NCBI GenBank assembly: GCA_022510425.1
Contig: JAFLTO010000003.1
Location: forward strand, 133,570-197,569
Direction: 5' to 3'
Length of the DNA: 64,000 nt
From: Muribaculaceae bacterium
GTDB lineage: Bacteria; Bacteroidota; Bacteroidia; Bacteroidales; Muribaculaceae
A model generated the notes under the pieces. The model was not told the origin of the DNA. It saw only the letters and a list, made by a program, of their open reading frames with translations, and ran no database searches. Shown in pieces: positions 5,841-22,452 of the stretch. Every line of letters starts with the position of its first letter. Position 1 is the first letter of the stretch. The translations under genes and the position numbers were made by a program.

Positions 5841-5962
5841 ATAAAATATTTTAAGGTTATTGATATCTTTCATGAATCCCTCAACCCTTCTCCTTTATTA
5901 CTTATCTTTCGCAAATTAATAAAAATTTTCCGAAAAATAAAAGATTATTCGTTGGAAATAAT

Positions 5963-5998: not shown

Positions 5999-8230
5999 AT
6001 GAAAATTCGTCTGTTTGTTGTTTCGGTTCTAACGATACTTTCTGCTTTCTGCATTGAAGTATATGCTCAAGTTTTGAACAGGGCTTTGGAATTCTCGGAT
6101 TCCGGATATGTGGATTGCGGTTATTTGCCGGAAATGGAAGGAAAGGATTCTTATTCCTTACAATTCTGGATGAAACCCTTCAAATGGATTTCAGGGGCTT
6201 CTATAATTTCATATGGAGATGATTTCTCTGTTAAATTGGCCGACCCTGATCAAATTATAATTCATTCCGGTAAAAAAAATTTAAAAGTCACTTCTTCTGA
6301 ACTGAAACCGAATGAATGGACCCAGGTAACGATTATTTGTAATCAGGGAGAAACTGAAGTATTAATAGATGGTTCTGAAGCCGCTAAAGGAAATCTATCT
6401 GCCATAACAACCAACGGTTCTCATCCGTCTTTTATAATAGGAGGAGGTTTTGATGGAATGATAGATGAGGTGCGGGTGTGGGATGATGCACTTAACGATG
6501 AGATGAAATCTTTCGATTATTTCACCCGCAACACATTAAACAAGCATAATCCGATGTGGTCAAATCTTGTGGCATACTACAAGATGGACCAACCCGATTG
6601 CCCCAATCTTGTGGAATACAAGATTATTGATTCTCCCGACGCTGAATATAATAATCACGGTATATTTTATGGTGATGTAAAAAGGGTAGAGGCTGACAAT
6701 CCTAAATTACCTTATCTTATAAATTCAGCTTATACTGAGAATCCACGTTTTTATTATTGTGTCACTCCCCAAGATCAATACCTTCTTCATAATGAATTGA
6801 TAATACTCGGCTCAGATGTATATGCCGAGGATGGTCGTATTGAAACCAAAACCCCCAATAATCATGCAATTAATTTTATAAATACCTCTTATATTCCCAA
6901 ATTCGAGGGGAGAAACGGTATTTTACAGCTTCATGGAGATAAAGATTCTTATTTTTCAATACCGGCTAAAACCGTTAAATCCGATAAGAACTTCACAATA
7001 GAGGCGTGGCTATATCTTGATGATATAAACACTGACGAAAGCAGTTTACCCACTAAAGAATGGTTCCATTTGGCAATATCATCGGATGAAGAAAACCAAT
7101 TAGGTGGTATCTCTTATTATATAAATGGAGTAAAGGTGGATGGAGAAAATCTAAATATTAATTTAGGAGCAAGTAGAGATTCTGAAAATCCGGATGAAAT
7201 TTTAATAGGTAAAGATTTCAAAGGGAAAATCGATGAATTGGTTATATGGAACGAAGGTTTCTCTCTAAAAGATATCAAAGATCATTATGAAAAAGGTATT
7301 CCGTCTCCCGGATATGGTTACCCTGTGAGCCGGGAAATTATGAATGCCGTAGGCGCTTATTATAAATTCGATGATGAAAACAATCAGGGTCACAGTTACC
7401 ATTCTCAGGATGAATGGCTTAATATCATGAAAAAGAATTATGAGGGCCGACAAGGTATAAAATACTTTATTTCCGTGCAAGGCACTTATAGAGTACGCGA
7501 TAAATACGGCGATTGGAGGGAAATCCTTGAATCATCAGAAAAACGGCACCGTTTCGCTAATGATTTAGCCGAAATATCTAAAAATTATGATGGTGCCGAA
7601 CTAGATTTGGAGTGGATAGAAACTCCGGAACTATGGGAACATTTCGGCCTTCTGGCACAAGCTATCCGTGAAGCAATGCCCGATGACAAACAATTCAGAA
7701 TCTCATTGCATAATAATTTCACCGCCTTTCCTCAAGATAAGATGAAATATGTGGATGGTTTCACATTCCAGCAATATGGTCCGCAAGCCTCCAATTTCAG
7801 TTATCAGAATTTCCTTGATAATGTCAAAAAATTTGAAGGTCTTTATGAACCCAAGAAGATAATGACTTCTTATTCCACTACCACTTCTCGAGGCTCCGAG
7901 GGTTCTCCGGTTAGATTAATAAAAGGAGAACCGCTCAACAATTATTCTCCTAATTATGAAGATCAGGATTCTTTTACTATAGGAGAGGAGACCTGGAAAT
8001 TTATGGGACCGATGCAAGTCTATCGTCGTGCCAAACAAACGCGGGAAGAAAATCTTCTTGGAATTTTCTATTGGGTGATCGGTGACGACAATTGGAACGA
8101 AGAAAACGGAGATTTGAAAATAGCCCCAAACAATCAAGCCAAATATAGCTCTTTCGGTATCAACGCCAACAACGACCCCTACATTCCCTCGGTTAAGGTA
8201 AATCACCCCAAAAACACTGAATCACGATAA
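5999..8230 (+). CDS. Secreted LamG(x2, second shortened)-GH18-like protein, paralog 1; no T9SS tail
   Basis: Signal peptide ..EVYA|QVLNRALEF. LamG/concanavalin-like hallmarks are present (SYSLQFWMKP.., MIDEVRVWDDAL; KGKIDELVIWNEGF). The C-terminal TIM-barrel-like region carries YDGAELDLEW (7589-7615), FTFQQYG and GIFYW, which resemble GH18 motifs. It is colinear with 11506-13986 and with the C-terminus of 14173-22452. Confidence 0.75.
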   Translation: MKIRLFVVSVLTILSAFCIEVYAQVLNRALEFSDSGYVDCGYLPEMEGKDSYSLQFWMKPFKWISGASIISYGDDFSVKLADPDQIIIHSGKKNLKVTSSELKPNEWTQVTIICNQGETEVLIDGSEAAKGNLSAITTNGSHPSFIIGGGFDGMIDEVRVWDDALNDEMKSFDYFTRNTLNKHNPMWSNLVAYYKMDQPDCPNLVEYKIIDSPDAEYNNHGIFYGDVKRVEADNPKLPYLINSAYTENPRFYYCVTPQDQYLLHNELIILGSDVYAEDGRIETKTPNNHAINFINTSYIPKFEGRNGILQLHGDKDSYFSIPAKTVKSDKNFTIEAWLYLDDINTDESSLPTKEWFHLAISSDEENQLGGISYYINGVKVDGENLNINLGASRDSENPDEILIGKDFKGKIDELVIWNEGFSLKDIKDHYEKGIPSPGYGYPVSREIMNAVGAYYKFDDENNQGHSYHSQDEWLNIMKKNYEGRQGIKYFISVQGTYRVRDKYGDWREILESSEKRHRFANDLAEISKNYDGAELDLEWIETPELWEHFGLLAQAIREAMPDDKQFRISLHNNFTAFPQDKMKYVDGFTFQQYGPQASNFSYQNFLDNVKKFEGLYEPKKIMTSYSTTTSRGSEGSPVRLIKGEPLNNYSPNYEDQDSFTIGEETWKFMGPMQVYRRAKQTREENLLGIFYWVIGDDNWNEENGDLKIAPNNQAKYSSFGINANNDPYIPSVKVNHPKNTESR

Positions 8231-8559: not shown

Positions 8560-9783
8560 ATGCTTATGAAAAAATCATTACTTTTAACTATGGCCCTTTT
8601 GGGTGGTATGTGCGCTTATGCACAAGCACCGACAGGTGGTACTGACGTTACACCTGCCGGCTACAAATTCGGAGAAGTCAAACAAATTCCTTGGTATGAT
8701 AATGGTTTTGGAGCTAACGGCTATGGGTTTACTTCAGCCGCCAATTTCACAACCAGTAGCCGTGCCGGAAAAGGTGTATGGACTGTCCTTGGTTCTTCTG
8801 CTCAGGAATATTGGGATGCCAACAACGGTCTTATGGGATGCGCATGGGTTGCAGACGAGGAAATGATGAATCAGATACTTGAAGGTTGTCAACTTGTTGA
8901 CCTCGGTGGAGAAGTAGGTCAAGTGTTCTGCTGGCAAGGTAGATATTCCAATCTGAAAGAACAACTACAGGAAAATTATCCTAATGAGAATTGGGATAAC
9001 ATTCCTGACCCGATCGACACAAACGTAAAACAAGGTTGGAACTTCAACGTTTGGTTGAATCCTAATCAAGTTTGGACAAAAGGTATGGGTTTCTATCGTT
9101 TCCGTATGGTCATGAACGCTCTTCATAATGTACCTGAAGATCTTATCGATGAAAGCGACAGCAGCACTTTGCCTTTCAGAGGTCAAGCTATCTTCAAGGA
9201 AATGTATCAGGTGAACAACCAAGGCAATAACACTTCTTTCATCTATACGGGAGAAGTTAACGAAGAGGGGGAAAAAGTTAATACATCCATACGTGACGGT
9301 TGGGACAATGGTTCTGTAATGACTCCTATCACCAACGATCTTTTCGTTAAGAGATTTGAAGACGGCGCCGTAATGGAAAATGATTATGGCGACCCGATGT
9401 GGGACCCCACAAAATGGATTGTTGTTGACTATTACTTCAATGTTGCCGGTAACGACAAGGGTGTTGATGAAAACGGTGATGCTACTACTCCGGTACGTAT
9501 TAAGTTCAATACCGATGTTTTTATGAACTATCACGCTGTGCTTATCAAGGAATTCTCTGTAACCCAGTTTGACGGTGAATTGACCCAGGATATCTATGAC
9601 CTCAACAAATTGTCATATCCGGAATTGACTCTGACACCGGGTGTTGCAGGCGTGCAAGGAATCATCGACGATTACAATGCTCCTGTTGAATACTATAACC
9701 TCCAAGGTATGAAGGTTGCTAATCCTGAAAAGGGTATCTTCATCAAGAAACAAGGAAAGAAATCAACTAAGGTCGTATTATAA
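8560..9783 (+). CDS. T9SS-sorted secreted protein carrying one copy of an unassigned module ('domain X', subtype b)
   Basis: Signal peptide ..CAYA|QAPTGG (the ATG at 8566, MKKSLLL, is equally possible). Domain X motifs: DVTPAGYKF, LVDLGGEVGQVF, WDPTKW (9400-9417), LIKEFSVTQ. The C-terminal tail PVEYYNLQGMKVANPEKGIFIKKQGKKSTKVVL looks like a type-A T9SS C-terminal domain. Confidence 0.75.
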   Translation: MLMKKSLLLTMALLGGMCAYAQAPTGGTDVTPAGYKFGEVKQIPWYDNGFGANGYGFTSAANFTTSSRAGKGVWTVLGSSAQEYWDANNGLMGCAWVADEEMMNQILEGCQLVDLGGEVGQVFCWQGRYSNLKEQLQENYPNENWDNIPDPIDTNVKQGWNFNVWLNPNQVWTKGMGFYRFRMVMNALHNVPEDLIDESDSSTLPFRGQAIFKEMYQVNNQGNNTSFIYTGEVNEEGEKVNTSIRDGWDNGSVMTPITNDLFVKRFEDGAVMENDYGDPMWDPTKWIVVDYYFNVAGNDKGVDENGDATTPVRIKFNTDVFMNYHAVLIKEFSVTQFDGELTQDIYDLNKLSYPELTLTPGVAGVQGIIDDYNAPVEYYNLQGMKVANPEKGIFIKKQGKKSTKVVL

Positions 9784-9794
9784 TGAAATAAATT

Positions 9795-9826
9795 ATGTTC
9801 TTGGAGAAAAATTTCTCCAAGAACAT
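9795..9826 (+). terminator. Hairpin (12-bp stem ATGTTCTTGGAG / CTCCAAGAACAT, 8-nt A/T loop)
   Basis: Perfect inverted repeat at 9795-9806 and 9815-9826, followed by TTCGATTTT. Confidence 0.55.
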
Positions 9827-9868
9827 TTCGATTTTAATAACTAACCAATAAACAAATCTATCTAACAA

Positions 9869-11389
9869 ATGAAAAAAACTCTACTTACCCTTGCTGCTGT
9901 AGCTATCTCAGTAGGTGCGTGGGCACAAGACAACGCCGGCTTGATCGACGTAACTCCCAATTATTACAATTTTAACAAGATCAATTCTACTCAATTGACT
10001 TCAATCCTTCGTTCTGATGTTCGTCAACCGGTTCCTTTCAATCTTGGAGGTGATAACTGGATTACATCAAATACCAATGGCGGTGAAAATTATTTCACTT
10101 CAGAACAGATTGCTAATGGTAACATTCTTTTTGGTGCTTTTGTTTACAACCAGTCAAAAGAAGCTGAATTTGCTAAAGCTTTCTCTCTATTAGATTTAGG
10201 TGGCAACCTTGGCCAAGTATTAGTTCTTAATGGACAGAATTCAAACTTGAACGAAGCAGTTCAGGAGGCTTGTGGTCTTGATGCAGCTCCCGAAATTCCG
10301 GCTTACCAAGGTGCTTTCGGTGCTAATTTCCAATATAACCATATTTTGGATTTCGAATCAATGAATAAATATGTCTTGGAAGCTAACCCGGGTCTTACTG
10401 CTGCTGATCTTTTGGAACAGGCTGAAGATGCAAAAATCACTCCAATCCGTATCAGAATCAGAGTTGAAATGAACGCATATAATAATGACATGTCTAAAGA
10501 ACTAAGTATTGTAAATACCACATTCTTACAGAACGAAGCAGGTAATGCAATTGGTTTTGATGTTATGGATCCAGATAACTTCACTTATGTAGATGTGTCT
10601 CAGTTCTCGGAAAATGGTGTTTGGAATCCAAACCTTTGGCTCGTTCGTGAGTGGGATGTAGACTACACAGGTATCGCATCCTACATAAAATTCTTAGGCA
10701 CTAATACTGATTCAGATTTCGATAATGGTGCTCTCCTTGTTCGTAGTTTGAAAGTATTCGTACTTCCAGAAGGCGAAGAATCTTATCCTAATTACACTAA
10801 AGTAATAGACGGTGTAACTAAAGAATACAAATTTTCTACATTCCATGACACTTTAGTTGACTATTCAGAAGTAGCTGTTGAACCGGCTTATCCTGAAAAC
10901 CTCTATATGATGGGTAATATCGTTAATAATTCCTGGAATCCTTCTGCTGCAGTAGCTCCTGAATCTGCTGAAGACGGTGTGTTCACTTTCACAGATATCG
11001 AACTTTATAACACAGCAACTGATCCCGCTTTCTTTACTTTCATCAATACTCTTAGCGACAATTGGGATTTAATCAATGACGGTTCTCACCGTTATGGTCC
11101 TGCTGAAGGTCAAAATGGTGCTGTTAATGTAGGCCAGTCTGATATCAAGTTCGCTCTCGGTGGTGACACTTCTTTCAATATTGCAAATGGTACATACGAT
11201 TTTGTTGTAGATTTCAACACTATGACAATCGCAATTTCTGAAGCCGGTTCAGTTGGTGTTAAGACAGTTATCGATTTCAATGCTCCGGTTGAATACTACA
11301 ACCTCAATGGTGTGAAGGTTGCTAATCCTGACAAGGGTATCTACATTATCCGTCAGGGCAACACAACAAAGAAAGCTGTTATCCGTTAA
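9869..11389 (+). CDS. T9SS-sorted secreted protein: domain X (subtype a) + SusE/F-like or CBM-like beta-sandwich + T9SS tail
   Basis: Signal peptide ..GAWA|QDN. Domain X motifs: DVTPNYYNF, LLDLGGNLGQVLVLNG, WNPNLW (10622-10639), LLVRSLKVF. Region ~10897-11245 (NLYMMGNIVNNSWNP...GTYDFVVDFNTMTIAIS) resembles SusE/SusF-type glycan-binding domains. Tail: PVEYYNLNGVKVANPDKGIYIIRQGNTTKKAVIR. Confidence 0.75.
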   Translation: MKKTLLTLAAVAISVGAWAQDNAGLIDVTPNYYNFNKINSTQLTSILRSDVRQPVPFNLGGDNWITSNTNGGENYFTSEQIANGNILFGAFVYNQSKEAEFAKAFSLLDLGGNLGQVLVLNGQNSNLNEAVQEACGLDAAPEIPAYQGAFGANFQYNHILDFESMNKYVLEANPGLTAADLLEQAEDAKITPIRIRIRVEMNAYNNDMSKELSIVNTTFLQNEAGNAIGFDVMDPDNFTYVDVSQFSENGVWNPNLWLVREWDVDYTGIASYIKFLGTNTDSDFDNGALLVRSLKVFVLPEGEESYPNYTKVIDGVTKEYKFSTFHDTLVDYSEVAVEPAYPENLYMMGNIVNNSWNPSAAVAPESAEDGVFTFTDIELYNTATDPAFFTFINTLSDNWDLINDGSHRYGPAEGQNGAVNVGQSDIKFALGGDTSFNIANGTYDFVVDFNTMTIAISEAGSVGVKTVIDFNAPVEYYNLNGVKVANPDKGIYIIRQGNTTKKAVIR

Positions 11390-11410
11390 TCTAAGGATTG
11401 CTTAATTATA

Positions 11411-11440
11411 AGAGTCACCGGGATTGCTCCCGATGACTCT
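11411..11440 (+). terminator. Imperfect hairpin (7+5 bp with one C.A mismatch, 4-nt loop)
   Basis: AGAGTCA-C-CGGGA ttgc TCCCG-A-TGACTCT, read directly, 22 nt after the stop at 11389. Confidence 0.4.
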
Positions 11441-11505
11441 ACAATTTAGAGGTAAGCGGGCTTGCCCCGTGAATCCCCTTCGATTAATCTTTTAACCTAA
11501 AATAC

Positions 11506-13986
11506 ATGAAGAAACTCTTGTTGGCATCAGCCTTATCAGCTGTTGCTTTGGGCGCATTGAATGCACAGGTGATCAACCGGGCAATTCAATTCTCGCCGGA
11601 AGGAACCGTTGATTGTGGTGCGATGCCTGATTTAGACAATTTAAGGTCCTATTCTTTGCAATTTTGGCTTAATCCTAATTCATGGTCCGAAAATGCCAAT
11701 ATAATTAGTCGCGGTGACAATTTTGTAGTTAAATTAGGTCCTCAAAACACTATCCGTTTCATAAACGGTGAAAGTGAAGTAGCTGCCTCCCATAAAGAAC
11801 TTAAAACCGGTGAATGGTCACAGGTAACACTTATCTGCGACGACGGTAAAGCTCAAATCCTTGTCAACGGCATGTATGCCGGTGATGGCTCTCTATCCGG
11901 TGTGGAAAAATCGGATGCATCTATTATATTGGGTGGTCAATATTCCGGTCTTCTCGATGAAGTAAGGATTTGGAATGATGCCCTCGATGATGAGATGGAC
12001 TCTTTCGATTATTTCATCTTCAATACCCTCAATAAGTGGAATCCTATGTGGGATAACTTGATCGCTTATTATAAGATGGATCAAGAAAATTGCCCATATC
12101 TTGTCGACTATAAAGGTATTGATGAAAAATTGAAACCTTACGACAACCACGGTATTATGTTGCAAGGTGTTGAAAAAGTTGAAGCGAACAATGATAAGAT
12201 GCCTTATCTTATCAATTCGGCCTATACAAACAATGAGAGATTTTTCGACCGCATAATTCCGCGTGAACAATATCTTTTAAGCAATGACTTGATCATTTTA
12301 GGTGTCAATGTTTATGCTTACGACGGTCATCTCGAGACAAAATCTCCCAATAATCATGCCATATCTTTAAAAAACACCGAATATCTATCTGAATTCCAGG
12401 GTAGGAATGGAGTATTGTCTTTCAATGGTTCCGCTTCAATGGAATTGCCTGCCTCCATGTTCCCCGTAAATGATGTGTATACTTTCGAATCATGGCTTTA
12501 TATAGATGATTGGACTCCCGGTGCATATTTATTAAGGAAGGAAAATGAAAATCAGACCATTGGTATTGCAGTTTATTTAGGTGAAGAGGATCAGAAACGA
12601 GTCCTTGTCAGAATTAATGGCAAAGTCTATGCTTCAACGCTCGATGTTTCTCTTCCTGTGGGACAATGGGTGCACTTCGGTTTTTGCACCGGTCTAAACG
12701 TTGACCTCCCTAATACTTTCTATTTCTTCAAAGATGGGAGGAGATATAATTGTGACGATAAAACTGATTTGACCACCGGTGAAAAAGGAAAGGCAAATAC
12801 ATTTATCAATGAAGATTCTGCTGCTTTCCCTCTTCTTTTAGGAGAGAATTTTAAGGGAAAACTTGATGAAACTCTTTTATGGAAACAGGATTTACCTGCA
12901 TCAACAGTTTCCAGTCATAAAACAAAAGTTCCGATGCCGGGTCTCGACAACACGGTGAGTGCTACGACTTTCCAAAACAGTCTTGGATATTATAATTATG
13001 ATGATCCGGAGGATTTGGGATTCAGCAGCCATTCACAAGATTCATGGCTTAAAATCATGAAATCAGCTTATGAAGGTCATGCCGGCGTGAAATTCACAAT
13101 TTCTGTGATGGGTTCATATACTCCGGGAGCTGAATTTGGTGATTGGAGAGATATACTCGGTGACGAGTCAAAACGTCAAAGATTTGCCTCAGATTTAGCT
13201 GAGATTTCCAAGAATTATGACGGGGTGGAACTTGACCTCGAATGGATTGAGAAAGCCGGCCAATGGTCGGACTACGGTTTGTTGGCCAAAGAAATAAGGG
13301 AAAAACTTCCTGAAGGCAAGGAATTCCGAATCTCTTTGCACAACAGTTATACCGGTTTCCCTGTGGACTATCAGGATTATGTTGATGGTTTCACTTTCCA
13401 ACAATATGGTCCGCAAGCTACAAATTTCAGTTACAGAAATTTTACTAGTAATGTACATAATTTCATAACTAAATTTGATCGCAACAAGATAATGACTTCT
13501 TATTCCACCACAACTTCCAAGGGTGCCAACGGTGCTGCGGTAATTGGTGTTAAGGGGGACTGTCTTGAAAGTTATGTTCCAAGTGAGGCTGATTCAGATA
13601 AATACACCAACGATGCAGGGGAAACCTGGACATATATGGGTCCGATGCAAGTGTATCGTCGCGCCCAATATACTCGCGAAAACAATCTGCAAGGTATTTT
13701 CTATTGGGACATGGGGAATGACTATTGGTTAGGCACTGCAGCTAACCCCGAAATGCCTGTCTATAACCAGGCAAAATATTGCAGCTATGCCATCAATGCA
13801 AACAACGATACGATCGTTACCGATCTCTCGGTTAATCATTACATTCCGGCCGGTGTAGGAATAATCAACAATGAAATTTCCGGTCCGGTTGAGTACTATA
13901 ACTTGCAAGGAATCAAAGTTCAACGTCCTGAAAAGGGTATCTATATCCGAAAGGAAGGTTCCTCAACACGCAAGGTAATCTTTTAG
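11506..13986 (+). CDS. T9SS-sorted LamG-LamG-GH18-like protein, paralog 2
   Basis: Signal peptide ..ALNA|QVINRAIQF. LamG hallmarks (SYSLQFWLNP, LLDEVRIWNDAL; KGKLDETLLW). GH18-like motifs YDGVELDLEW (13219-13245), FTFQQYG, GIFYW. Tail: PVEYYNLQGIKVQRPEKGIYIRKEGSSTRKVIF. Confidence 0.78.
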   Translation: MKKLLLASALSAVALGALNAQVINRAIQFSPEGTVDCGAMPDLDNLRSYSLQFWLNPNSWSENANIISRGDNFVVKLGPQNTIRFINGESEVAASHKELKTGEWSQVTLICDDGKAQILVNGMYAGDGSLSGVEKSDASIILGGQYSGLLDEVRIWNDALDDEMDSFDYFIFNTLNKWNPMWDNLIAYYKMDQENCPYLVDYKGIDEKLKPYDNHGIMLQGVEKVEANNDKMPYLINSAYTNNERFFDRIIPREQYLLSNDLIILGVNVYAYDGHLETKSPNNHAISLKNTEYLSEFQGRNGVLSFNGSASMELPASMFPVNDVYTFESWLYIDDWTPGAYLLRKENENQTIGIAVYLGEEDQKRVLVRINGKVYASTLDVSLPVGQWVHFGFCTGLNVDLPNTFYFFKDGRRYNCDDKTDLTTGEKGKANTFINEDSAAFPLLLGENFKGKLDETLLWKQDLPASTVSSHKTKVPMPGLDNTVSATTFQNSLGYYNYDDPEDLGFSSHSQDSWLKIMKSAYEGHAGVKFTISVMGSYTPGAEFGDWRDILGDESKRQRFASDLAEISKNYDGVELDLEWIEKAGQWSDYGLLAKEIREKLPEGKEFRISLHNSYTGFPVDYQDYVDGFTFQQYGPQATNFSYRNFTSNVHNFITKFDRNKIMTSYSTTTSKGANGAAVIGVKGDCLESYVPSEADSDKYTNDAGETWTYMGPMQVYRRAQYTRENNLQGIFYWDMGNDYWLGTAANPEMPVYNQAKYCSYAINANNDTIVTDLSVNHYIPAGVGIINNEISGPVEYYNLQGIKVQRPEKGIYIRKEGSSTRKVIF

Positions 13987-14130
13987 AATAATAACAATTA
14001 AAAACCAATAAAAACAACCAAACTATCGGCATGATGCAAGGTAAGAAGACCCCCTAAACAATGAATTTTAATAGTTAAGGAGTCTTACTTACGTGCTTGA
14101 TCAAAACATTCATCGGGTGAAAACCTAATG

Positions 14131-14171
14131 AACCAACACAAATCAAATTTTTAATTAACCAACACAAATCA
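14131..14171 (+). repeat. 15-nt perfect direct repeat AACCAACACAAATCA (14131-14145 and 14157-14171) ending 1 nt before the giant ORF start codon
   Basis: Read directly from the sequence. G-free A/C-rich leader. Confidence 0.8.
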
Positions 14172-14172
14172 C

Positions 14173-17100
14173 ATGAAAAAACTCTTACTAACATTGGGAG
14201 TCGCGGCACTCACAGTCGGAGCTTGGGCTGTGCAGACACTTGCCACCGATATCCCTGAAACGTTTGAAGATGTTACACCAACATACTTCAAATTTTATGA
14301 AGGTAATACTGATCTTTCTAAAATGATAAGAACAGATATCCCCTCTCCCGCTCAAGCAAATTTAAAAAACACAAATGGTAACTTTATTTCCTCTAATACA
14401 GATACTGTTGGATCATTATTTTCTCGTTCAAAATTATCAGAAGGTAATTTAATTTTTGGAGGTGCTTATTGGAGAACTCAAGAGGAATTAGCTAAAGGTT
14501 TTTCTTTAGTTAAATTAGGAGAGGAAATTGGAGAAGTATTGGTATTAAATGGTCATCAATCCGATTTAGTCTCAACTCTTAAAGCATTAGGGCTAAATGA
14601 AAATCCAGAGGTTTCCTCAATGGAGGCTGCTTTTAGTGGTAATCTACAACTTTTCTGGGTTTTAGATAATATTCAAATTAAGAATCTTAAATATCCGTAT
14701 TTAAAAATAAAAGTTGAGTTAAATGCTTTTAATAATAAACAAAGTTTGGAAAAGGAAGCTCTTAACTCAATAACTTTTGTTACAGAGGCAGGTAATCCTT
14801 TTGGAGAAGAAAAAAAAGTTTGTTTTAATGAATTTTTGAAAGACAATTCTAATGAAGAATGGGATCCTTATAAGTGGATGGTATACGAATTTTACATTGA
14901 TAAGAAAGATATAGGATCTTATTTAAGAATGTTTATAAATGATTCACTTTCAGACTTAAATAATGGAGCATTGTTAATACGTAGTATTGAAGTTTACGGT
15001 GTCTCTGAAATAGCATCTGATATTACTAAAGATTCTGTAAATAAAACTTGGAATGACTATACTCCTGAAACTGTAAAAAACGGTAATTATAAAATAACGC
15101 AAGAGAAAAATGTAATAACTTTCACTTTCGATAAAGAATTTAAAAAAGTAGGTGAGGATTCTGAAATTACTGTTTCAAATGCTCCAAGCGGATTGACTCC
15201 ATCCATTAATGTTGATGAAGCTAACAAAACTATAACAGTTACATTAACTGATTTCCCGGCAAAGGAATATAAAATTAATATCCCTGAAGGTTTCGTAAAA
15301 TTCGGTCCTTTCGAAATCAATGAAGCCATTTCTGAAACTATCACTATAGGGAAGGAGTATGAAACCGGAACTGTTGCCCCTCTTCAGGGAGACCAAATCG
15401 GTTTCACGGTTACTTATTCTAAGGATATTACAAACCTCCAGCCTACTGGGCAGATAACTTTAACCCCAAAAACTCCGGTAACAACTCAACCTTCTCTCAA
15501 GAAAACTCAAAACGGTAATGTTCTGACCGTTACTTTGGACGGAGGTGAAGCAGCTGTTTATACTGTTACTATACCTAAAGATTATTTTACTCTCGATGTT
15601 AATCTTTTCAGCGATAAAGTTTCTCAGGAACTGACTGTTGAAAAGAAATATGAAACCGGAACTGTGGCTCTTCTTGAAGGAGATAAAATAGGTTTTACGG
15701 TTACTTATCCTATGGATATAATTGAACTCTTGACAGGTGAAATCAAAGTGGAACCAATTAAGTCAGCTACCAATCTTCCAGCTGCCAAGCCCACTAAAGA
15801 AGGTAAGGTTCTAACAGTTGTTTTGGAAGGCGGTGACCCGGGTGATTATACTGTGACTGTTCCAAAAGAATATGTTAAACTTGGCGTAAATCTTTTCAAC
15901 AATGCCGCTACAAAAACTCTTAACGTTCCGGAAACAGGTAGTAACCCTTCTGTCCCCACAGAGCCTGAAACTCCGGAAGATGTTGTTGGAACCAACATAA
16001 CTCCCAAAAGTTATCATTTCGGAACTACAACAAATCTCCCTTTGCATCCGGAATATATTAATGTACAAAATATCGTAAAGGAGACCAATGATGTTTATTC
16101 CGATGCTAATCTTGCTTCTTCATATGAAGACGGCCTTATCGTTGTTTCAACCGGAGGAGGTCAAAGTGCAGTTGAACAATCTGATTTTAGAAACTCACTT
16201 CAATTGATCAATCTTGGTGGTGAAGTTGGAAATGTTTTGTTCTATGGAACAAAAGGTTCAGGAATTGTAAATGTTCTTAAAAACAAGGCTTCTGATTTTA
16301 CAACAGAATGGGACAAAATAAGTGTCAACCCCAGTACAAACAGGAATTGGCAATTGAATTTCTTTATGCCTCCCACATATACTCAAACAAATGGAAATTA
16401 TGTTCATTGTAGAGTAATTTATAATGTTTTTTCTGCAAATTCAGACTTAACAAAGGCCCCATTCAATAATATGGGTATGATTAAGAATAACAATGCGGCC
16501 GATGCTTCATTTACAAACTCGGGTAAAGATAAAGGAATAATTACTTTTGCAGATAATGATTGTTATACAGATGGTGAATGGGATCCTACTAAATGGCAAG
16601 TTGTAGAATTTGATTTCACTAATGACGGAAATGTACCTTATCGATTTAGAATTGACGTTCCAGGTCCTACTTATTGGGATAATTTGGCTCTCTTTATCAA
16701 GGACATTAAATTTACTGAAGTAAAGGGTGATTATACCGGTTCAAACATCAAGAAATACAGTGTAACATATAAAGATCCCTTCACTTACACTCTTGGTGAT
16801 CAAATTATAACAAGGACTAAGAGAATTCCGGTTGTTAATGAACTGGGTGAGCAAAGTGAAGAAAAAGGTTTCACACTTTCATTTGACGGTGATCTTTATC
16901 AAGGTACAGGAGAAATTACAATAACTACAACGGAAAATGTTACTACGAAACCGCAAGTAAAATCGATAATTAAAGGTAAAACACTCACCGTTACTCTCGA
17001 AGGAGGTGACGCTGCAGAATATACAGTTACAGTTCCGGAAGGATTTGTAAATATCAGTAACCATTCTTTCAATGCTCCGGTTAAACAAATAATTACTATA

Positions 17101-20100
17101 AATAATAATTCTGAAGATCAGGATGATCCGAATTATCCTAAAGTAAATCCGGGTACTGACATCACTCCGGCTAACTATAACTTCAATGATCCAAAAGCAA
17201 TCCTTCCAATCCACCCAACCGGAAAAGTTGATAACGTAAATCTTGGAGCTTCTGCTTGGAAGGCCTTGAATTGTAGTGATTACTGGGATAATGGCTTGAT
17301 GGTGGTTTCTTCCGGAGGAGGATTAACTCAAGTTCAACACGATGCCTTTAAGAATGCATGGAATTATGTTGATTTTGGTGGTAAAGTTGGTCGAGTAGCA
17401 TGTTATATTAACCGAGGATCAACGGCCATTGAGGATCTTAAGAAACTTAATTCTATTGAAGCCTGGGATGATTTAAATAAAAATACCCAAGTATTTAGTG
17501 GTGGTGCTTTGAATTTCTATTTAGATCCAGATCCTAAGAATACTCCTAAAACAGGTTATATCCATGCAAAAATAGTCTTCAATGTTGATGATTTAAATGA
17601 AAGTGTCGCTAATGGAGTTATTTTACAAAATATCAATGTTAGAGATGACTTGAATAACAATGAATGTTCAGGTTTTGTCTTGGATCCTATAACAGGTGAA
17701 AAAGTAAATGTATTAAAGAATGAATTTACCACTAATGGGAAATGGGATCCTACTAAATGGATGACATATGAATTTGATTTTAAAGTGGATGGAACCGATA
17801 AGTCAGCTGACCTCAGTCAACTTCCGGTTAGAATAAAAATGTTCTTCCAAGGATCTCAAGCAAATAACACTTCTGCTATTTTCTTCAAGGAGATTTCTTT
17901 CACTCATGTCGATGATGCTGATCCTACTATGTTAGGGAAAGTTTATCAGAAGATGGAGACTTTGGAAATCGGTACTCCGAAGATTTCTTTCATCCCGGCC
18001 GAAAAAATGGCTGCAAGCAGTGTTAACGTAAATGAAAATGTCTTGACTGCTACTTTTGATCAAAACATCACATTGGATGAAACTAAATCTGTAACTATTT
18101 CTCCTTCTTCCACAACAGGAAAATTGGACGTGAAGGTTAATGATAAATCTATTGTCGTTACTTTGACTGATTATCCTTACTATACTTATACTGTGACAAT
18201 ACCGGAAGGTTTTGTTAAAGTTGGTGACAAGGGAATAAATGAAGAAATTGTCCAAGAAATTGAAATCTCTGCTCCAAAAGTCAAAGACAAGGAATATTAC
18301 TTCCCGTCTGCACTCGATATTCCAGCAGGTTATATAGACATGACTCCTTCTTATTATAAATTCTATAATGGGAAAACCGATTTGGATAAGATGTTGAGAA
18401 ATGATATTAATTCTCCGACTGCAACCAATTTGGGAGGTGATTACTTTATCACTAACAATATGGGAGATGGTAAATATTTCAATAACGATAATTTGTCAAA
18501 AGGCAACTTGATTTATAAAGCCGGCATGTATCAAAATGATAAGGATAATGACAGATTACGCAGTGCATTCTCTCTCTTTGATTTTGGTGGTAATGTAGGT
18601 GAAGTATTGGTGCTCAACGGTAAGAATTCAAAGTTGAATGAAGCTATTGCTGAAAACTTTAATCTCCAGACATCCTACAATATTTCCAAACCTGCCGGAG
18701 ACTTCATGAATATGCAGTTGATGTGGCTTCTTGACAATCCAAAAATGAATTCAAATCTCATTAATGGAAATTATACAGTGCATGTAAGAATGGAACTTAA
18801 CATGTACAACAACAATATGGCCACTGAATATCCATTAATGTCTAATATGTATCTGCAAAGACAAACAGGTACAACTGCAGCTGAATTTGACTTAAATGAT
18901 AAGTTCATTGATGAGTTCACCTATAGAGTAAATGAGGAATCTTACAAAGAGGGAGAATTCAATGTAAATAAGACTGATAAATGGAACCCCTATCGTTGGA
19001 TGGTTTTAGATTTTGAAACCGATTACAATCGTGTGGTTTCCTACTTGCGTACATTCTTGCAATCCAACCAAATGAAGGATCATTCAAATGGTGCTTGGCT
19101 TATCCGTAGTATAGAAATATATGGTATACCTTCTAATGTTACTTCTACTTATGAAAAGAATAAGCTTTACACTTCTTGGAATGAATATAAAGCGAGTGAT
19201 TTTATAGTAAAAGAACCTACTCCTGAACAAGCCAAGGAGGATCCAAGCGAGAAATCAATTGTAGAGAATACTATTCCGGGTGATAAAGTTGAAAACGAGG
19301 CTTCTTTCAACGGATTCCAGGATGATAAAGACCATGAAAATTCATGGACAATTGAAGACGCCAAGGTAGCCAAATATTATTACTATAACGTTTCAACCGG
19401 TAAGAACGTTACTTTGGCTGATGAAGCTACCAAAGATGTGGTTAAAGTTGATGCGAATACAATCACAATTTCTGCTCCTGCAGATATGGGTACAGAATAT
19501 CACCATGGCATTGTAAGAATCAATACAGGCATCGAGATTCAGGAAGGAGCTACCTACAACTTCTCGGCTCAAGCTACCAAAGTTGCTTCTACCCGTGCGG
19601 CTGCTAATGTTCCCGATATCCTCGTGAAACTTACTGCAGAAAGTAGCAATGCCACTTCAGGTCTTGCCAACAAGACAGAAAACGGTGTTCATTATCTCTC
19701 TAATGCAGAACTCACAGCAGGAAATCTTGTTCTTGAAATCCATTTCGGTGGTGCAGAGAATGCCGGAAATGACATAACCTTGAGCAATATAACCCTGGCT
19801 CAATTGACAGAAGGATCTTCCGGTGGAAACAATTCCGGTGGAAATCCGGGTGTCGGAGATGAAGGTGGTTTCATTCCGGGTGATTATTCCGGAGAACCTA
19901 CAGTGAACCGTGCAATGCAGTTTACTCAGTCAGGCACTGTTACTTGTGGTGCGATACCGGAACTCAACAACCTATCTTCATATTCAATCCAATTCTGGAT
20001 GAAGCCGCAAGAATGGGAGGAAGGTGCCACATTGCTCCGCAGAGGTGACAACTTCTCTGTTGAACTCGGAGAAAATCACAATATTGTCTTCAAGAATTCA

Positions 20101-22452
20101 GACAATGAGGTTATTGCAAAAGGATTGTTGGCCAATGAATGGAACCAGGTAACTTTAATGGTCAACAAAGGGCAAGCAACTGTATTAGTTAACAGTGTCA
20201 ACGGTGGTAGCGGTACACTCGGTACTCTTGAAGAGACCAAACGACCCTTCATCATGGGTGGCGGATATGTAGGTCTTCTCGATGAAGTGCGTCTATGGAA
20301 CGATGCTTTGAGCAACAACGATTTGATGACAAGATTCGATTATTTCACCAACAACACCCTCAACAAGTGGAACCCGATGTGGAATAACCTGGTGGCATAT
20401 TATAAGATGGACCAGGAAGCTGCTCCACAGGTAATCGAATATAAAGTTCTTGAGAACCGTAAAGCCGACGGTACCAACAACCATGGTGTTATTTCAGAAG
20501 TAGGTGTTCAGAGGGTATTGGCAAACAACGAAAAGATGCCTTACCTCATCAACGCAGCTTATACTGAGAACGAACGTTTCTACGATCGTCTCATCCCGCA
20601 GGATGCTTATCTCCTAAGCAACGAGATAATTGTGCTTGGTGCTGATTGTCAAGCTTCAGACGGTAGCGTTAAGACAAGACTTGGTAACAACCACGCTTCA
20701 ATATATGGCGGAGTTTCTTATGCAAGTATCGGTGGCAGAACAGGTGTAGCATCGTTTGATGGTAAGAGCGGTTCTTATATTCAGGCTCCGGCAGGTATCG
20801 TTCACTCATACACTGCCGACGGCAATTCATATAACTCGGACTACAAGACCTATTCATTCCTGTTCCGTATATATATAGACACCTGGCAGCCCGGTGCTTG
20901 CATCTTCAGTAATGAAAATTCTGCCAAGACAGCCGGTTTTGCGGTATTGTTGGGTGACTCACCCAAGACTCTTACTATCAGAGCCAACGGTAAGACCAAC
21001 ACTACTAAGGTCATGGACAAATTCAATCTTGGCGGATGGAACCATATTGCAATCGTTCCCAACGCCAGTTCTCGTTCAGCAGCAACCAAATATGATCTCT
21101 ATGTTGGTGCCACCAAGTGCGATTTCGATGCATCAGCAAGTGCAATCGAAGATATAGCATTGGCTAATGTAGTATCAAATCCTGCAAAGATTGGTGAAGG
21201 ATTCAAGGGTTATCTCGATGAGATGTACTTCTCTAACCAGAGTCTCGGTCTCGGTATGATCCAGGCATATGCCAACAGGGTTATCGTACCGACGGTTGAA
21301 CAAGGTAGAAACGTGGCCGAGATGAATGCGTCCGGATTCCTCTACAACTTTGACAATCCAAGAAATCTTGGTTACAGCTCCTTCTCACAAGACTATATTG
21401 CAGACTATATCCGCAGTCTCTATAGCGGTTATTCACCGGCGAAGGTAGTTCTCTCAGTAAGAGGACACAACGAAAGCGGCAAGTCTGACAATTTCTCAGA
21501 AATATGGGGCAATGACACCAAGGTAAGGAAATTCGCTCAGGATCTGATCAACGCGGCATCAAACTACGACGGTGTGGAATTCGACCTTGAATGGTGTCAG
21601 AATGCAACTCAATGGAGCAATCTGTCAAAACTTTCAGACGCAGTTGAGGCATTGTTGCCGGCCGGAAAGACATTCCGTATCTCTGTGCATGCTGCATATT
21701 ATGACTTCCCGAAAGCTAAGATAAACCATAACAATATCACAGGTTTCACAGTTCAGCAGTATGGACCGAACGCCACATTCTATCCCTATTCAACGTTCAC
21801 CAAGACTCTGAAAGATATGGAATCATATGGATATCCCAAGGATAAGGTTATGCCTTCATTCTCTACTACAATGCAAGGAGGAGGAGACATCAGAGGAGGC
21901 GCTTTCGCTAACTACAAGTTGAACGACAATGATGTTGACACATATAACGGAATGAGCTTCATGGGCCCGATGCAAATATTCAAACGTGCACGTTATGCCC
22001 GTGAAAACAACTACCAAGGTATCTTCTACTGGGCTATGGGTAACGACTACTGGTTAGGAGATAAGAATATGGGTAGCGGCGGTGTTGCTAATTACCAAGG
22101 TATGCCGGAATTTAATGGAGCCAAGTATTGCAGCTACGGTCTGAACGCTAACGTGGACAGAGTTGTGCTTTCAGCTAAGATTTCTCATCCCGACACCGAA
22201 TATGCCGAAGGAGAGGAAGTGGTAATTCCAGATCTTGATGACGAATTCGGCGACAATGTAGGAGATAATCCAGGTGATGATGACAATAACGGAGATACTT
22301 CTAACGTTAACTCACTTGATAGCGTAGAATACGTGGATGTTTACACTATCGGCGGAGTCCTAATCAAGAAGAATGCAGTTAAGTCTGAATTGAACAACCA
22401 ACTCGAAAAGGGTATCTACATTATTGATGGCAAACAAACTTTAGTTAGATAA
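14173..22452 (+). CDS. Giant (2,759 aa) T9SS-sorted modular surface protein: 4x domain X, 5x Ig-like spacer repeats, CBM4/9-like domain, LamG-LamG-GH18-like module (paralog 3), acidic linker, T9SS tail
   Basis: Single uninterrupted ORF with signal peptide MKKLLLTLGVAALTVGAWA. Domain X copies lie at ~14245-15003, 15991-16727, 17152-17910 and 18331-19128, each with a W(D/N)PxxW motif. Five repeats end in ..TVTL(T/D/E)..Y(T/K)(V/I)(T/N)(V/I)P(E/K)(G/D/E)(F/Y). The GH18-like motif YDGVEFDLEW is at 21568-21594. The tail is ..VDVYTIGGVLIKK...LEKGIYIIDGKQTLVR. Confidence 0.85.
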   Translation: MKKLLLTLGVAALTVGAWAVQTLATDIPETFEDVTPTYFKFYEGNTDLSKMIRTDIPSPAQANLKNTNGNFISSNTDTVGSLFSRSKLSEGNLIFGGAYWRTQEELAKGFSLVKLGEEIGEVLVLNGHQSDLVSTLKALGLNENPEVSSMEAAFSGNLQLFWVLDNIQIKNLKYPYLKIKVELNAFNNKQSLEKEALNSITFVTEAGNPFGEEKKVCFNEFLKDNSNEEWDPYKWMVYEFYIDKKDIGSYLRMFINDSLSDLNNGALLIRSIEVYGVSEIASDITKDSVNKTWNDYTPETVKNGNYKITQEKNVITFTFDKEFKKVGEDSEITVSNAPSGLTPSINVDEANKTITVTLTDFPAKEYKINIPEGFVKFGPFEINEAISETITIGKEYETGTVAPLQGDQIGFTVTYSKDITNLQPTGQITLTPKTPVTTQPSLKKTQNGNVLTVTLDGGEAAVYTVTIPKDYFTLDVNLFSDKVSQELTVEKKYETGTVALLEGDKIGFTVTYPMDIIELLTGEIKVEPIKSATNLPAAKPTKEGKVLTVVLEGGDPGDYTVTVPKEYVKLGVNLFNNAATKTLNVPETGSNPSVPTEPETPEDVVGTNITPKSYHFGTTTNLPLHPEYINVQNIVKETNDVYSDANLASSYEDGLIVVSTGGGQSAVEQSDFRNSLQLINLGGEVGNVLFYGTKGSGIVNVLKNKASDFTTEWDKISVNPSTNRNWQLNFFMPPTYTQTNGNYVHCRVIYNVFSANSDLTKAPFNNMGMIKNNNAADASFTNSGKDKGIITFADNDCYTDGEWDPTKWQVVEFDFTNDGNVPYRFRIDVPGPTYWDNLALFIKDIKFTEVKGDYTGSNIKKYSVTYKDPFTYTLGDQIITRTKRIPVVNELGEQSEEKGFTLSFDGDLYQGTGEITITTTENVTTKPQVKSIIKGKTLTVTLEGGDAAEYTVTVPEGFVNISNHSFNAPVKQIITINNNSEDQDDPNYPKVNPGTDITPANYNFNDPKAILPIHPTGKVDNVNLGASAWKALNCSDYWDNGLMVVSSGGGLTQVQHDAFKNAWNYVDFGGKVGRVACYINRGSTAIEDLKKLNSIEAWDDLNKNTQVFSGGALNFYLDPDPKNTPKTGYIHAKIVFNVDDLNESVANGVILQNINVRDDLNNNECSGFVLDPITGEKVNVLKNEFTTNGKWDPTKWMTYEFDFKVDGTDKSADLSQLPVRIKMFFQGSQANNTSAIFFKEISFTHVDDADPTMLGKVYQKMETLEIGTPKISFIPAEKMAASSVNVNENVLTATFDQNITLDETKSVTISPSSTTGKLDVKVNDKSIVVTLTDYPYYTYTVTIPEGFVKVGDKGINEEIVQEIEISAPKVKDKEYYFPSALDIPAGYIDMTPSYYKFYNGKTDLDKMLRNDINSPTATNLGGDYFITNNMGDGKYFNNDNLSKGNLIYKAGMYQNDKDNDRLRSAFSLFDFGGNVGEVLVLNGKNSKLNEAIAENFNLQTSYNISKPAGDFMNMQLMWLLDNPKMNSNLINGNYTVHVRMELNMYNNNMATEYPLMSNMYLQRQTGTTAAEFDLNDKFIDEFTYRVNEESYKEGEFNVNKTDKWNPYRWMVLDFETDYNRVVSYLRTFLQSNQMKDHSNGAWLIRSIEIYGIPSNVTSTYEKNKLYTSWNEYKASDFIVKEPTPEQAKEDPSEKSIVENTIPGDKVENEASFNGFQDDKDHENSWTIEDAKVAKYYYYNVSTGKNVTLADEATKDVVKVDANTITISAPADMGTEYHHGIVRINTGIEIQEGATYNFSAQATKVASTRAAANVPDILVKLTAESSNATSGLANKTENGVHYLSNAELTAGNLVLEIHFGGAENAGNDITLSNITLAQLTEGSSGGNNSGGNPGVGDEGGFIPGDYSGEPTVNRAMQFTQSGTVTCGAIPELNNLSSYSIQFWMKPQEWEEGATLLRRGDNFSVELGENHNIVFKNSDNEVIAKGLLANEWNQVTLMVNKGQATVLVNSVNGGSGTLGTLEETKRPFIMGGGYVGLLDEVRLWNDALSNNDLMTRFDYFTNNTLNKWNPMWNNLVAYYKMDQEAAPQVIEYKVLENRKADGTNNHGVISEVGVQRVLANNEKMPYLINAAYTENERFYDRLIPQDAYLLSNEIIVLGADCQASDGSVKTRLGNNHASIYGGVSYASIGGRTGVASFDGKSGSYIQAPAGIVHSYTADGNSYNSDYKTYSFLFRIYIDTWQPGACIFSNENSAKTAGFAVLLGDSPKTLTIRANGKTNTTKVMDKFNLGGWNHIAIVPNASSRSAATKYDLYVGATKCDFDASASAIEDIALANVVSNPAKIGEGFKGYLDEMYFSNQSLGLGMIQAYANRVIVPTVEQGRNVAEMNASGFLYNFDNPRNLGYSSFSQDYIADYIRSLYSGYSPAKVVLSVRGHNESGKSDNFSEIWGNDTKVRKFAQDLINAASNYDGVEFDLEWCQNATQWSNLSKLSDAVEALLPAGKTFRISVHAAYYDFPKAKINHNNITGFTVQQYGPNATFYPYSTFTKTLKDMESYGYPKDKVMPSFSTTMQGGGDIRGGAFANYKLNDNDVDTYNGMSFMGPMQIFKRARYARENNYQGIFYWAMGNDYWLGDKNMGSGGVANYQGMPEFNGAKYCSYGLNANVDRVVLSAKISHPDTEYAEGEEVVIPDLDDEFGDNVGDNPGDDDNNGDTSNVNSLDSVEYVDVYTIGGVLIKKNAVKSELNNQLEKGIYIIDGKQTLVR
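15352..15933 (+). repeat. Two tandem in-frame 291-nt (97-aa) units inside the giant ORF (Ig-like spacer repeats R2 and R3)
   Basis: KEYETGTVAPLQGDQIGFTVTY.. versus KKYETGTVALLEGDKIGFTVTY... An identical 17-mer TATGAAACCGGAACTGT occurs at 15358-15374 and 15649-15665, exactly 291 nt apart. Confidence 0.85.
19291..19806 (+). other. CBM4/9/22-like carbohydrate-binding-type domain within the giant ORF (approximate borders)
   Basis: ENEASFNGFQDD..NSW...IEIQEGATYNFSAQATKV....LVLEIHFGG..GNDITLSNITLAQL follows the typical pattern of CBM_4_9-type jelly rolls. Called by eye only. Confidence 0.45.
19897..22190 (+). other. LamG-LamG-GH18-like module of the giant ORF (approximate borders), colinear with the 743-aa and 826-aa paralogs
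   Basis: Shared blocks: VNRAMQFTQSG.., FDYFTNNTLNKWNPMWNNLVAYYKMDQ, MPYLINAAYTENERF, YDGVEFDLEW, FRISVH, GFTVQQYGPNA, MGPMQIFKRA, GIFYW. Confidence 0.75.
22270..22449 (+). other. Putative T9SS C-terminal sorting domain of the giant ORF, preceded by an Asp/Gly/Asn-rich linker
   Basis: Linker: PDLDDEFGDNVGDNPGDDDNNGD. Tail: SVEYVDVYTIGGVLIKKNAVKSELNNQLEKGIYIIDGKQTLVR. Confidence 0.6.

Follow-up and report, generated by a model that had tools for sequence, protein, structure and literature searches.

Module X, a candidate family of substrate-binding modules on type IX secretion cargo proteins of a Muribaculaceae glycan utilization locus

The DNA analysed here, a stretch of 64,000 nucleotides (64 kb; hereafter the window) from a Muribaculaceae bacterium (assembly GCA_022510425.1, contig JAFLTO010000003.1, positions 133,570 to 197,569 of the forward strand), carries a polysaccharide utilization locus (PUL) of ~36 kb in which a ~270-residue domain that we call module X occurs six times, once each in proteins of 407 and 506 amino acids (aa) and four times in a protein of 2759 aa, the giant. 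We regard it as somewhat probable that X constitutes a new family of non-catalytic substrate-binding modules that are displayed through the type IX secretion system (T9SS), forming the capture component of a PUL for host glycans rich in N-acetylglucosamine (GlcNAc). That X binds anything, and what its ligand would be, we infer from the evidence laid out below.

Among foragers of host glycans in the rodent gut the Muribaculaceae are dominant, and they occur in the human gut too; to our knowledge, almost none of their glycan-harvesting machinery has been characterized. In the libraries searched, X was the sole component of a recurrent locus of LamG-GH18 (glycoside hydrolase family 18), SusC/SusD and sulfatase genes that had no family assignment, and it was the component that evolved fastest and was most often duplicated.

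Results

Six copies of one module in three proteins

A profile hidden Markov model (HMM) of the family, run on the six-frame translation of the window (~128,000 residues), returned exactly six domains with E-values of 1e-48 to 1e-63 and none elsewhere in the window (Table 1), which bears out an earlier note, made from the sequence alone, that had counted six copies. All six span HMM positions ~4-263 and are thus full-length matches to the family, whose domains range from 245 to 325 aa and are further marked by a closing hydrophobic strand. Three motifs, (D/N)(V/I/M)TPxx(Y/F)x(F/Y/W), LxxLG(G/E)xVGxV and W(D/N)PxxW, were each found six times in the six frames, confined to the copies and in constant order (at 8644-8670, 8893-8925 and 9400-9417 in the 407-aa protein), and they align with strong statistics, the property on which the earlier note had made its module depend. 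Its six W(D/N)PxxW coordinates proved exact; it had also placed the copies correctly, but the HMM envelopes extend ~10-30 nucleotides beyond its ranges.

All-versus-all BLASTP of the excised modules separated the two subtypes that had been proposed. E-values were 7e-43 to 2e-52 among the modules of subtype a (506-aa protein, giant copies 1 and 4) and 9e-13 to 2e-31 among those of subtype b (407-aa protein, giant copies 2 and 3), as against mostly 1e-5 to 9e-9 between subtypes, the weakest pair being at 2e-3. The subtype signatures VLVLNG, NGA(L/W)L(I/V)RS and GL(I/M)VVS(T/S)GGG were present as described; GNL(I/L)(F/Y) failed in the 506-aa protein, which reads GNILF. The three genes had further been called adjacent, which is not strictly so, for the gene of an 826-aa LamG-GH18 enzyme devoid of X sits between that of the 506-aa protein and the giant.

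The window stems from a metagenome-assembled genome (MAG), and this is all that speaks for reading the repeats as chance or low-complexity resemblance or as an assembly artefact. Against that reading stand the HMM statistics, 225 independent relatives in other assemblies, a syntenic locus in a second MAG and a confident common predicted fold, by which it is already refuted.

A small family without assignment

Module X is a genuine but small family that is new at the sequence level, as judged by Pfam, NCBIfam and PDB profiles. Pfam-A gave no match on X in the window proteins (E<=1) and none on X in 100 family members scanned singly, the Cleaved_Adhesin profile (PF07675) included; the CBM_4_9 profile, tried for the CAZy carbohydrate-binding module (CBM) families CBM4, CBM9 and CBM22, likewise had no match in the window proteins at E<=1. 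NCBIfam was without a match on X in the window proteins and in eight further relatives, and PDB sequence-profile searches with alignments of 6 and 100 sequences produced chance-level matches only for X, the significant matches falling solely on the C-terminal tail. The claim that the module is unassigned therefore holds at the sequence level, and neither a profile nor a structure was found that matched it over its whole length. Neither the module nor a PUL type that combines X with LamG-GH18 and SusC/SusD turned up as described in a search of 8 million full texts.

An exhaustive HMMER search of 1.84 billion representatives clustered at 50% identity recovered 225 relatives at E<=1e-3, of which 178 reached E<=1e-10 and 99 reached E<=1e-30. 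A word-indexed search of 5.8 billion proteins yielded 10 relatives at first and 19 later, all of them lacking a precomputed Pfam domain, and a related-locus search of GTDB genomes with a narrow alignment yielded one locus. Every member for which a source name is available is a "hypothetical protein" of a Muribaculaceae MAG; these named members are the three X proteins of the window (J1F67_02915, J1F67_02920 and J1F67_02930) and P0012 and P0184 from two other assemblies (P numbers denote relatives, L numbers their loci). The only match to Pfam CBM_4_9 (PF02018) was that of the relative P0002, below threshold and located over its WDPTKW strand (20.4 bits, the cut-off being 25.9; E 7e-4).

Predicted fold and conservation

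A first AlphaFold2 (AF2) model, of copy 4 from 11 sequences, was mediocre, with a predicted local distance difference test score (pLDDT) of 68.8. The model of copy 3 from a 100-sequence alignment (m827ce02b9d27) reached a pLDDT of 88.1 and a predicted template modelling score of 0.88, with 183 of its 270 residues at pLDDT >=90; it has ~10 main beta strands, some of which, in its N-terminal half, are interrupted by short helices placed between them. Its best Foldseek match in the PDB was CBM4-2 of Rhodothermus marinus (2y6k; E 1.7e-5, probability 1.0; template modelling score (TM) 0.48 per target and 0.32 per query, root mean square deviation (rmsd) 6.3 A), followed by CelK CBM4, CBM28, CBM22, CBM15, CBM27, phloem lectin PP2, and MAM and Eph ligand-binding domains. 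The CBM matches as a group lay at E 1.7e-5 to 3e-4, probability 1.0 and TM 0.42-0.51 per target; normalized to CBM4-2, TM was 0.45-0.51 over the two models. The independent subtype-a model (copy 4) fell into the same fold class in Foldseek, and matches in BFVD were to jelly rolls of phage tail proteins. No close structural relative of X was found by Foldseek in the PDB, which includes recent CBMs with solved structures. On these models the core of X is predicted to be a galactose-binding-domain-like beta-jelly roll of the CBM4/22 kind, with ~80-100 residues of elaborations; the predicted fold class is familiar, so X would be a new family within a known kind and not a new architecture.

Conservation was assessed over 100 sequences in copy-3 numbering. 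The only positions conserved at >=90% were T13, P14, N38, G56, G84, G85, G88 and W211; D11, Y17, F19, D82, S98, R146, N152, W206, D207, P208, E215 and K237 were conserved at 60-90%, and position 254 was always K or R. The segment from N152 to W206 ranged from 32 to 94 residues across the family, the maximum being that of the 407-aa protein, and such variability may reflect a loop for specificity or exposure.

These data bear on whether X could itself be an enzyme, namely the catalytic domain of an undescribed jelly-roll family (compare GH16, GH11/12 and polysaccharide lyase family PL7) that acts beside GH18. With ~270 residues X is larger than a typical CBM (130-170) and close in size to GH16 and PL7, some two thirds of the family have no other cargo domain, D11 and E/D215 are ~90% conserved, and a PL7 lyase appeared at Foldseek rank 50. 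We nevertheless consider a catalytic X improbable. There was no invariant acidic residue or acidic pair in the 100 sequences, and the candidates are substituted even within the window: copy 2 has N for D11, copies 1 and 2 have K or N for D82, and three copies have Y or E for D217. A GH16-like ExDxxE motif was absent, the YEFDF strand offering E215 at 81% (D or E at 87%), D217 at 69% and no third carboxylate; the lack of an invariant pair and of this motif argues against catalysis by X, and a GH16-like reading was rejected on motif conservation. Neither GH16, GH11 nor GH12 was among the top 50 structural matches, and it would be unusual for catalytic domains to be repeated in tandem, to change in copy number and to diverge very fast.

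Architecture and secretion

Among 157 retrieved family proteins, X was present once in 147, twice in 7, three times in 2 and four times in the window giant only. Its median start was residue 18, and in 148 of the 157 it began no more than 45 residues from the N-terminus; X therefore directly follows the signal peptide. The modal protein, exemplified by the 407-aa protein, has 330-400 aa and consists of a signal peptide, X and a tail of ~50-80 residues. The signal peptides of the window X proteins end in ...AYAQ, ...AWAQ and ...AWA, followed by A, D and V, respectively; none of the three has a lipobox Cys beside the inferred cleavage site, the 407-aa protein having a Cys five residues before it.

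The earlier note had labelled these proteins T9SS cargo, and a profile of 16 family tails (including four from the window) searched against the PDB supports that label: it matched the C-terminal domain (CTD) structures of Arg-gingipain (7pq4, E 4.1e-6) and RgpB (5hfs, E 1.2e-5), 5ag8 (E 1e-4), HBP35 (5y1a, E 1.1e-3) and the T9SS substrate chain 8glk_D, as expected of a type-A sorting domain. The whole-protein family profile also matched 5hfs, and orthologous GH18 proteins in related loci carry Pfam Por_Secre_tail (PF18962). Among 100 relatives, Por_Secre_tail was matched by 6 (sub-threshold, best E 0.0034) and DUF6383 by 6 (best E 6.7e-8), which suggests that DUF6383 may itself be a variant of the T9SS CTD; TIGR04183 matches of relatives were sub-threshold (E 0.018-0.15). 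No T9SS machinery genes were found in the 64-kb window. The tails are short and divergent (the four window examples are placed in Table 1), that of the 506-aa protein being 60% identical to that of the 407-aa protein. The tail profile also gave a weak match (E 0.026) to the C-terminus of PDB 9x1i_A, the 981-aa 'Endo-beta-N-acetylglucosaminidase HS', which hints that a characterized endo-beta-N-acetylglucosaminidase (ENGase) may likewise end in a T9SS-like domain.

In the 506-aa protein, X and the tail are separated by a Trp-rich beta-type domain (LYMMGN..NSWNP…GTYDFVVDF) that has no Pfam match and is resembled in P0002 and in a 611-aa protein of L005. The Pfam matches of the giant were to Big_5 and LamG_3. 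Its Ig-like spacers (Big_5, four stretches) measure ~95-100 aa each, and the three that stand in a row from copy 1 to copy 2 resemble one another by eye (…GTVAPLQGDQIGFTVTY… / …GTVALLEGDKIGFTVTY…). The region between its fourth X and first LamG (aa ~1655-1905) has no Pfam match, is 55% identical in the L005 giant and closes on a pattern (…LVLEIHFGG…DITLSNITL) that looks like a canonical small CBM. We considered X as kin of this region, a duplicated and expanded copy of it, and rejected the idea, since hhalign against the X profile gave a probability of 0.3% and thus no relation.

Invariant gene order and fusion to GH18

Gene order could be compared at nine informative non-redundant loci (the window, L001, L005, L006, L010, L011, L014, L015 and L016), representing seven sequence clades of X; the contigs of P0009, P0132 and P0095 were too short for the purpose. 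At all nine, the last X gene is directly followed by genes for LamG_3-GH18, a small lipoprotein, SusC and SusD, with no counter-example. Outside the window this cassette accompanies P0008 (L001-4), P0022 (L006/7), P0004 (L010), P0046 (L011, partial), P0035 (L014), P0179 (L015), P0034 (L016) and the X genes of a second Muribaculaceae MAG (L005). Its LamG_3-GH18 proteins measure 815-861 aa and its lipoprotein homologues 176-214 aa, and its SusC and SusD proteins are 58-96% and 52-89% identical, respectively, to those of the window. The P0008 locus additionally encodes a hybrid two-component system (HTCS) regulator, a BNR sialidase, an anaerobic sulfatase-maturating enzyme (anSME) and a sulfatase. 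Tandem X genes are common, with two in L010, three in L013 and, in L005, five copies in three genes.

X is also fused to LamG-LamG-GH18 in three giants, the window giant with four copies and P0012 and P0014 with three each. Being both the neighbour of a GH18 enzyme and joined to it, X has a Rosetta-stone link to that enzyme. Its other fusion partners, Cleaved_Adhesin, Big_2 and a ConA-like domain, are non-catalytic; in P0079, the Cleaved_Adhesin domain (residues 41-137) lies apart from X (1018-1277).

How fast X diverges is seen when proteins of the window are compared with those of the syntenic MAG locus. SusC is 96% and SusD 89% identical, the LamG-GH18 proteins 75-79% and the lipoprotein 58%, as against 65% for the 407-aa protein, 47% for the 506-aa protein and 35% for the first X copy of the giant, and the orthologous giants differ in X copy number (4 versus 3). 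The X-bearing genes are the most plastic and fastest-diverging part of the locus.

The partner enzyme

All three GH18 domains of the window retain DG(V/A)E(L/F)DLE with its key D and E (13219-13242, 7589-7612 and 21568-21591, + strand), the 826-aa enzyme reading DGVELDLE and the giant DGVEFDLE; in the classic GH18 motif, DxxDxDxE, the second Asp stands where these domains have Glu. The same form is found in 6 of 8 orthologues from related loci, L015 has the classic DGIDLDLE, and a regular-expression search found no such GH18 motif in the L006 and L014 proteins. Pfam gave no GH18 match for the giant at E<=1; its GH18 domain is assigned because its C-terminal 860 residues are 41% identical, over 786 aa, to the 826-aa enzyme and keep DGVEFDLE. 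A profile of eight GH18 orthologues matched only distant chitinase-type GH18 structures in the PDB (6xyz, E 1e-7; 3co4, E 2e-7; ChiB, E 2e-6), and the 826-aa enzyme showed no similarity to 9x1i_A in a PDB phmmer search at E<=0.01. The partner domain is thus, by sequence, a genuine but divergent GH18.

Discussion

A proposed role in glycan capture

Tandem repeats, changing copy number, fast divergence, a variable loop and non-catalytic partners amount to behaviour typical of a binding module. We propose that X proteins would be exported by Sec, moved across the outer membrane by the T9SS via their type-A CTD and displayed on the Muribaculaceae cell surface, where X would bind a GlcNAc-containing glycan or glycoprotein of host type that is cleaved by the co-encoded LamG-GH18 endo-glycosidase; the adjacent SusC/SusD pair would then take up the products. 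Stand-alone X proteins would fill the role that lipoprotein surface glycan-binding proteins (SGBPs; SusE/F-like) have in Bacteroides, and in the giant, where Ig-like spacers keep apart four X modules belonging to two subtypes, the array would provide multivalent, long-reach binding for its enzyme. The content of the window PUL favours a host-glycan target: by PUL logic, two sulfatases, an anSME, GH20, GH2, a ROK kinase and NagB, together with the BNR sialidase of a relative, point to a sulfated or sialylated glycan of GlcNAc and galactose, for example a complex N-glycan or a keratan- or mucin-like chain.

The suggestion of a glycan-binding or adhesin module, first made from the motifs and neighbours in the window, is strengthened by the jelly-roll matches to CBMs, by the GH18 fusion in three giants and by the GH18 and SusC/SusD neighbours. 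In the giants, three or four X modules with a discrete predicted fold (pLDDT 88) stand N-terminal to LamG-GH18, which agrees with the structural part of the CAZy operational definition of a CBM, a contiguous module that folds independently within a carbohydrate-active enzyme, the other part being demonstrated carbohydrate binding. In a more specific version, X proteins would be a T9SS-anchored class of SGBP in a 'T9SS-type utilisome' for sulfated or sialylated host N-glycans or mucin-type glycans, the subtypes recognizing different epitopes and the hypervariable N152-W206 segment setting specificity; we hold this version to be possible but doubtful.

Several observations weigh against X as a substrate-binding module of this kind. 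None of the 100 members matched any Pfam CBM model at E<=0.1, and the likeness to CBMs is at the level of the fold only, with TM ~0.3 per query and 0.45-0.5 per target, rmsd 6-10 A and 8-12% identity over ~190 of 270 columns. The same fold serves protein-binding domains (Eph ligand-binding domain, MAM, phage tail proteins) and some enzymes. The tails of the four window proteins have no match to Pfam PF18962 or TIGR04183 at E<=1, and the GH18 domain is too divergent to be called ENGase or chitinase type, which leaves the substrate uncertain.

X might instead be a module for protein binding or adhesion, directed at the polypeptide of a host glycoprotein, at a host or bacterial surface, or at the PUL machinery as a scaffold or docking element. 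Foldseek also returned Eph ligand-binding and MAM domains, Fbs1, phage minor tail and receptor-binding proteins and gingipain K2/K3; one relative joins X with Cleaved_Adhesin and others join it with Ig-like domains; fast divergence would suit a surface protein under pressure from host or phage; and the CBM-like domain of EndoS, to take a known case, contacts IgG. We think this unlikely, however, since the strict coupling to a GH and SusC/SusD and the fusion to GH18 are more in keeping with substrate targeting than with general adhesion, the presence of two subtypes in three or four copies per polypeptide argues against docking to a single partner, and the best-scoring structural matches are CBMs.

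Comparison with known systems

X resembles CBM4, CBM22 and CBM28 (for example CBM4-2 of R. marinus Xyn10A) in being appended to a glycoside hydrolase, in occurring in several copies at times and in its predicted jelly-roll fold; the weak CBM_4_9 match of P0002 lies over the WDPxxW strand. It differs in having no significant sequence relationship to these families, in its length (245-325 versus ~130-170 aa), and in its helical insertions, its variable region of 32-94 aa and its own motifs DITPxxYxF, DLGGxVGxV and WDPxxW. With the SusE/SusF-like SGBPs of Bacteroides PULs, X shares a place in a SusC/SusD locus beside an endo-acting surface enzyme (9 of 9 loci), modules of beta-sandwich binding type, poor conservation between loci and tandem duplication. 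SGBPs, however, are lipoproteins encoded downstream of susD, whereas X proteins combine a type-I signal peptide with a T9SS CTD and are encoded upstream of the enzyme gene, and no sequence similarity between X and SGBPs was found.

T9SS-linked carbohydrate-active enzymes (CAZymes) are known in Bacteroidota, one of them being Flavobacterium johnsoniae ChiA, a GH18 with a T9SS CTD (PMC5127042, PMC5831590), and predicted T9SS surface proteins are already known in general in Muribaculaceae (PMC13404670). Such multimodular CAZymes, ChiA and the cellulases of 'Ca. Paraporphyromonas polyenzymogenes' among them, likewise combine a GH with a C-terminal T9SS domain and lie in or near a PUL; their targets are chitin or plant cell walls, and any CBMs that they carry are known ones, whereas here the module is undescribed and the PUL content points to host glycans. 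The cleaved-adhesin domains K1-K3 of gingipains and HagA are, like X, T9SS cargo and repeated jelly rolls in giant Bacteroidales surface proteins; X differs in having no Pfam Cleaved_Adhesin match, and K2/K3 were weak Foldseek matches of the first, low-confidence model that were absent from the top 50 of the confident one.

If X binds glycans, it would found a new CBM family, as are found regularly, would offer a means of approaching this PUL type's substrate, and would indicate that T9SS-bearing gut Bacteroidales build a surface capture apparatus unlike the lipoprotein paradigm of Bacteroides; a compact, independently folding module that recognizes sulfated or sialylated GlcNAc-glycans would, if real, also be a useful probe. 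X is accordingly offered as a candidate for a new CBM/SGBP family whose anchoring is unusual, not as a new category.

The window PUL and minor observations

The window PUL begins with genes for a sulfatase, LamG-GH18, two X proteins, LamG-GH18-CTD, the giant, a 188-aa lipoprotein, SusC and SusD, and continues with a sulfatase, GH20, GH2, a ROK kinase, an anSME-like radical SAM/SPASM protein, NagB, NagB+PIG-L and RpiB. The genes of the 407-, 506-, 826- and 2759-aa proteins are co-directional. The features are listed in Table 1.

Table 1. Features of the window that carry or accompany module X (SP, signal peptide; E-values of X copies from the family HMM unless stated otherwise)
Feature	Position	Strand	Remarks
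Sulfatase	4299-5873	-	window PUL
LamG_3 + GH18 protein, 743 aa	5999-8230	+	46% identical to 826-aa enzyme; no X
407-aa gene	8560-9783	+	SP, X, T9SS CTD (~9631-9780); modal architecture
X copy, 407-aa protein	8614-9600	+	subtype b; E 1.4e-48
506-aa gene	9869-11389	+	SP, X, Trp-rich beta domain, T9SS CTD (~11231-11386)
X copy, 506-aa protein	9917-10798	+	subtype a; E 3.6e-60; BLASTP vs giant copy 4 E 1.6e-52
Trp-rich domain, 506-aa protein	~10886-11230	+	aa ~340-455 (to ~460 in the gene's domain layout)
LamG_3 + GH18 + T9SS CTD enzyme, 826 aa	11506-13986	+	no X; Pfam LamG_3 1.8e-28, GH18 1.9e-12; tail 13828-13983
Giant, 2759 aa	14173-22452	+	SP, X(a), Ig-like x3, X(b), Ig, X(b), Ig, X(a), ~250-aa region, LamG x2, GH18, T9SS CTD (~22270-22449)
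X copy 1, giant	14239-15036	+	subtype a; E 3.5e-62
Ig-like spacers, giant	15037-15960, 16756-17130, 17941-18309	+	Pfam Big_5
X copy 2, giant	15964-16755	+	subtype b; E 1e-55; BLASTP vs copy 3 E 2e-31
X copy 3, giant	17131-17940	+	subtype b; E 3.4e-63; confident AF2 model
X copy 4, giant	18310-19161	+	subtype a; E 1.1e-60; first AF2 model
Region between X copy 4 and LamG, giant	19135-19887	+	no Pfam match
Lipoprotein, 188 aa	22692-23258	+	cysteine lipobox, signal ...GIVSC followed by DNE; no Pfam match
SusC-like TonB-dependent transporter	23279-26524	+	Pfam
SusD-like protein	26546-28525	+	Pfam
Radical-SAM/SPASM protein, anSME-like	36024-37217	+	counterpart in P0008 locus, L001 3316-4530 (-), alongside sulfatases

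The 743-aa LamG-GH18 protein ends in …HPKNTESR without a T9SS tail, as does its L005 orthologue (737 aa, 75% identical), and it may therefore be located differently from its paralogues. The 188-aa lipoprotein is a second conserved component of this PUL type without a Pfam family: tblastn found orthologues in L001-L007, L010 and L014, at 29-58% identity and in the same place between the GH18 gene and SusC. Finally, a small open reading frame of 56-57 aa follows X proteins of 478-509 aa (P0004/P0009 type) in three unrelated contigs (L010 3817-3990, L008 1626-1796 and L009 1695-1862).

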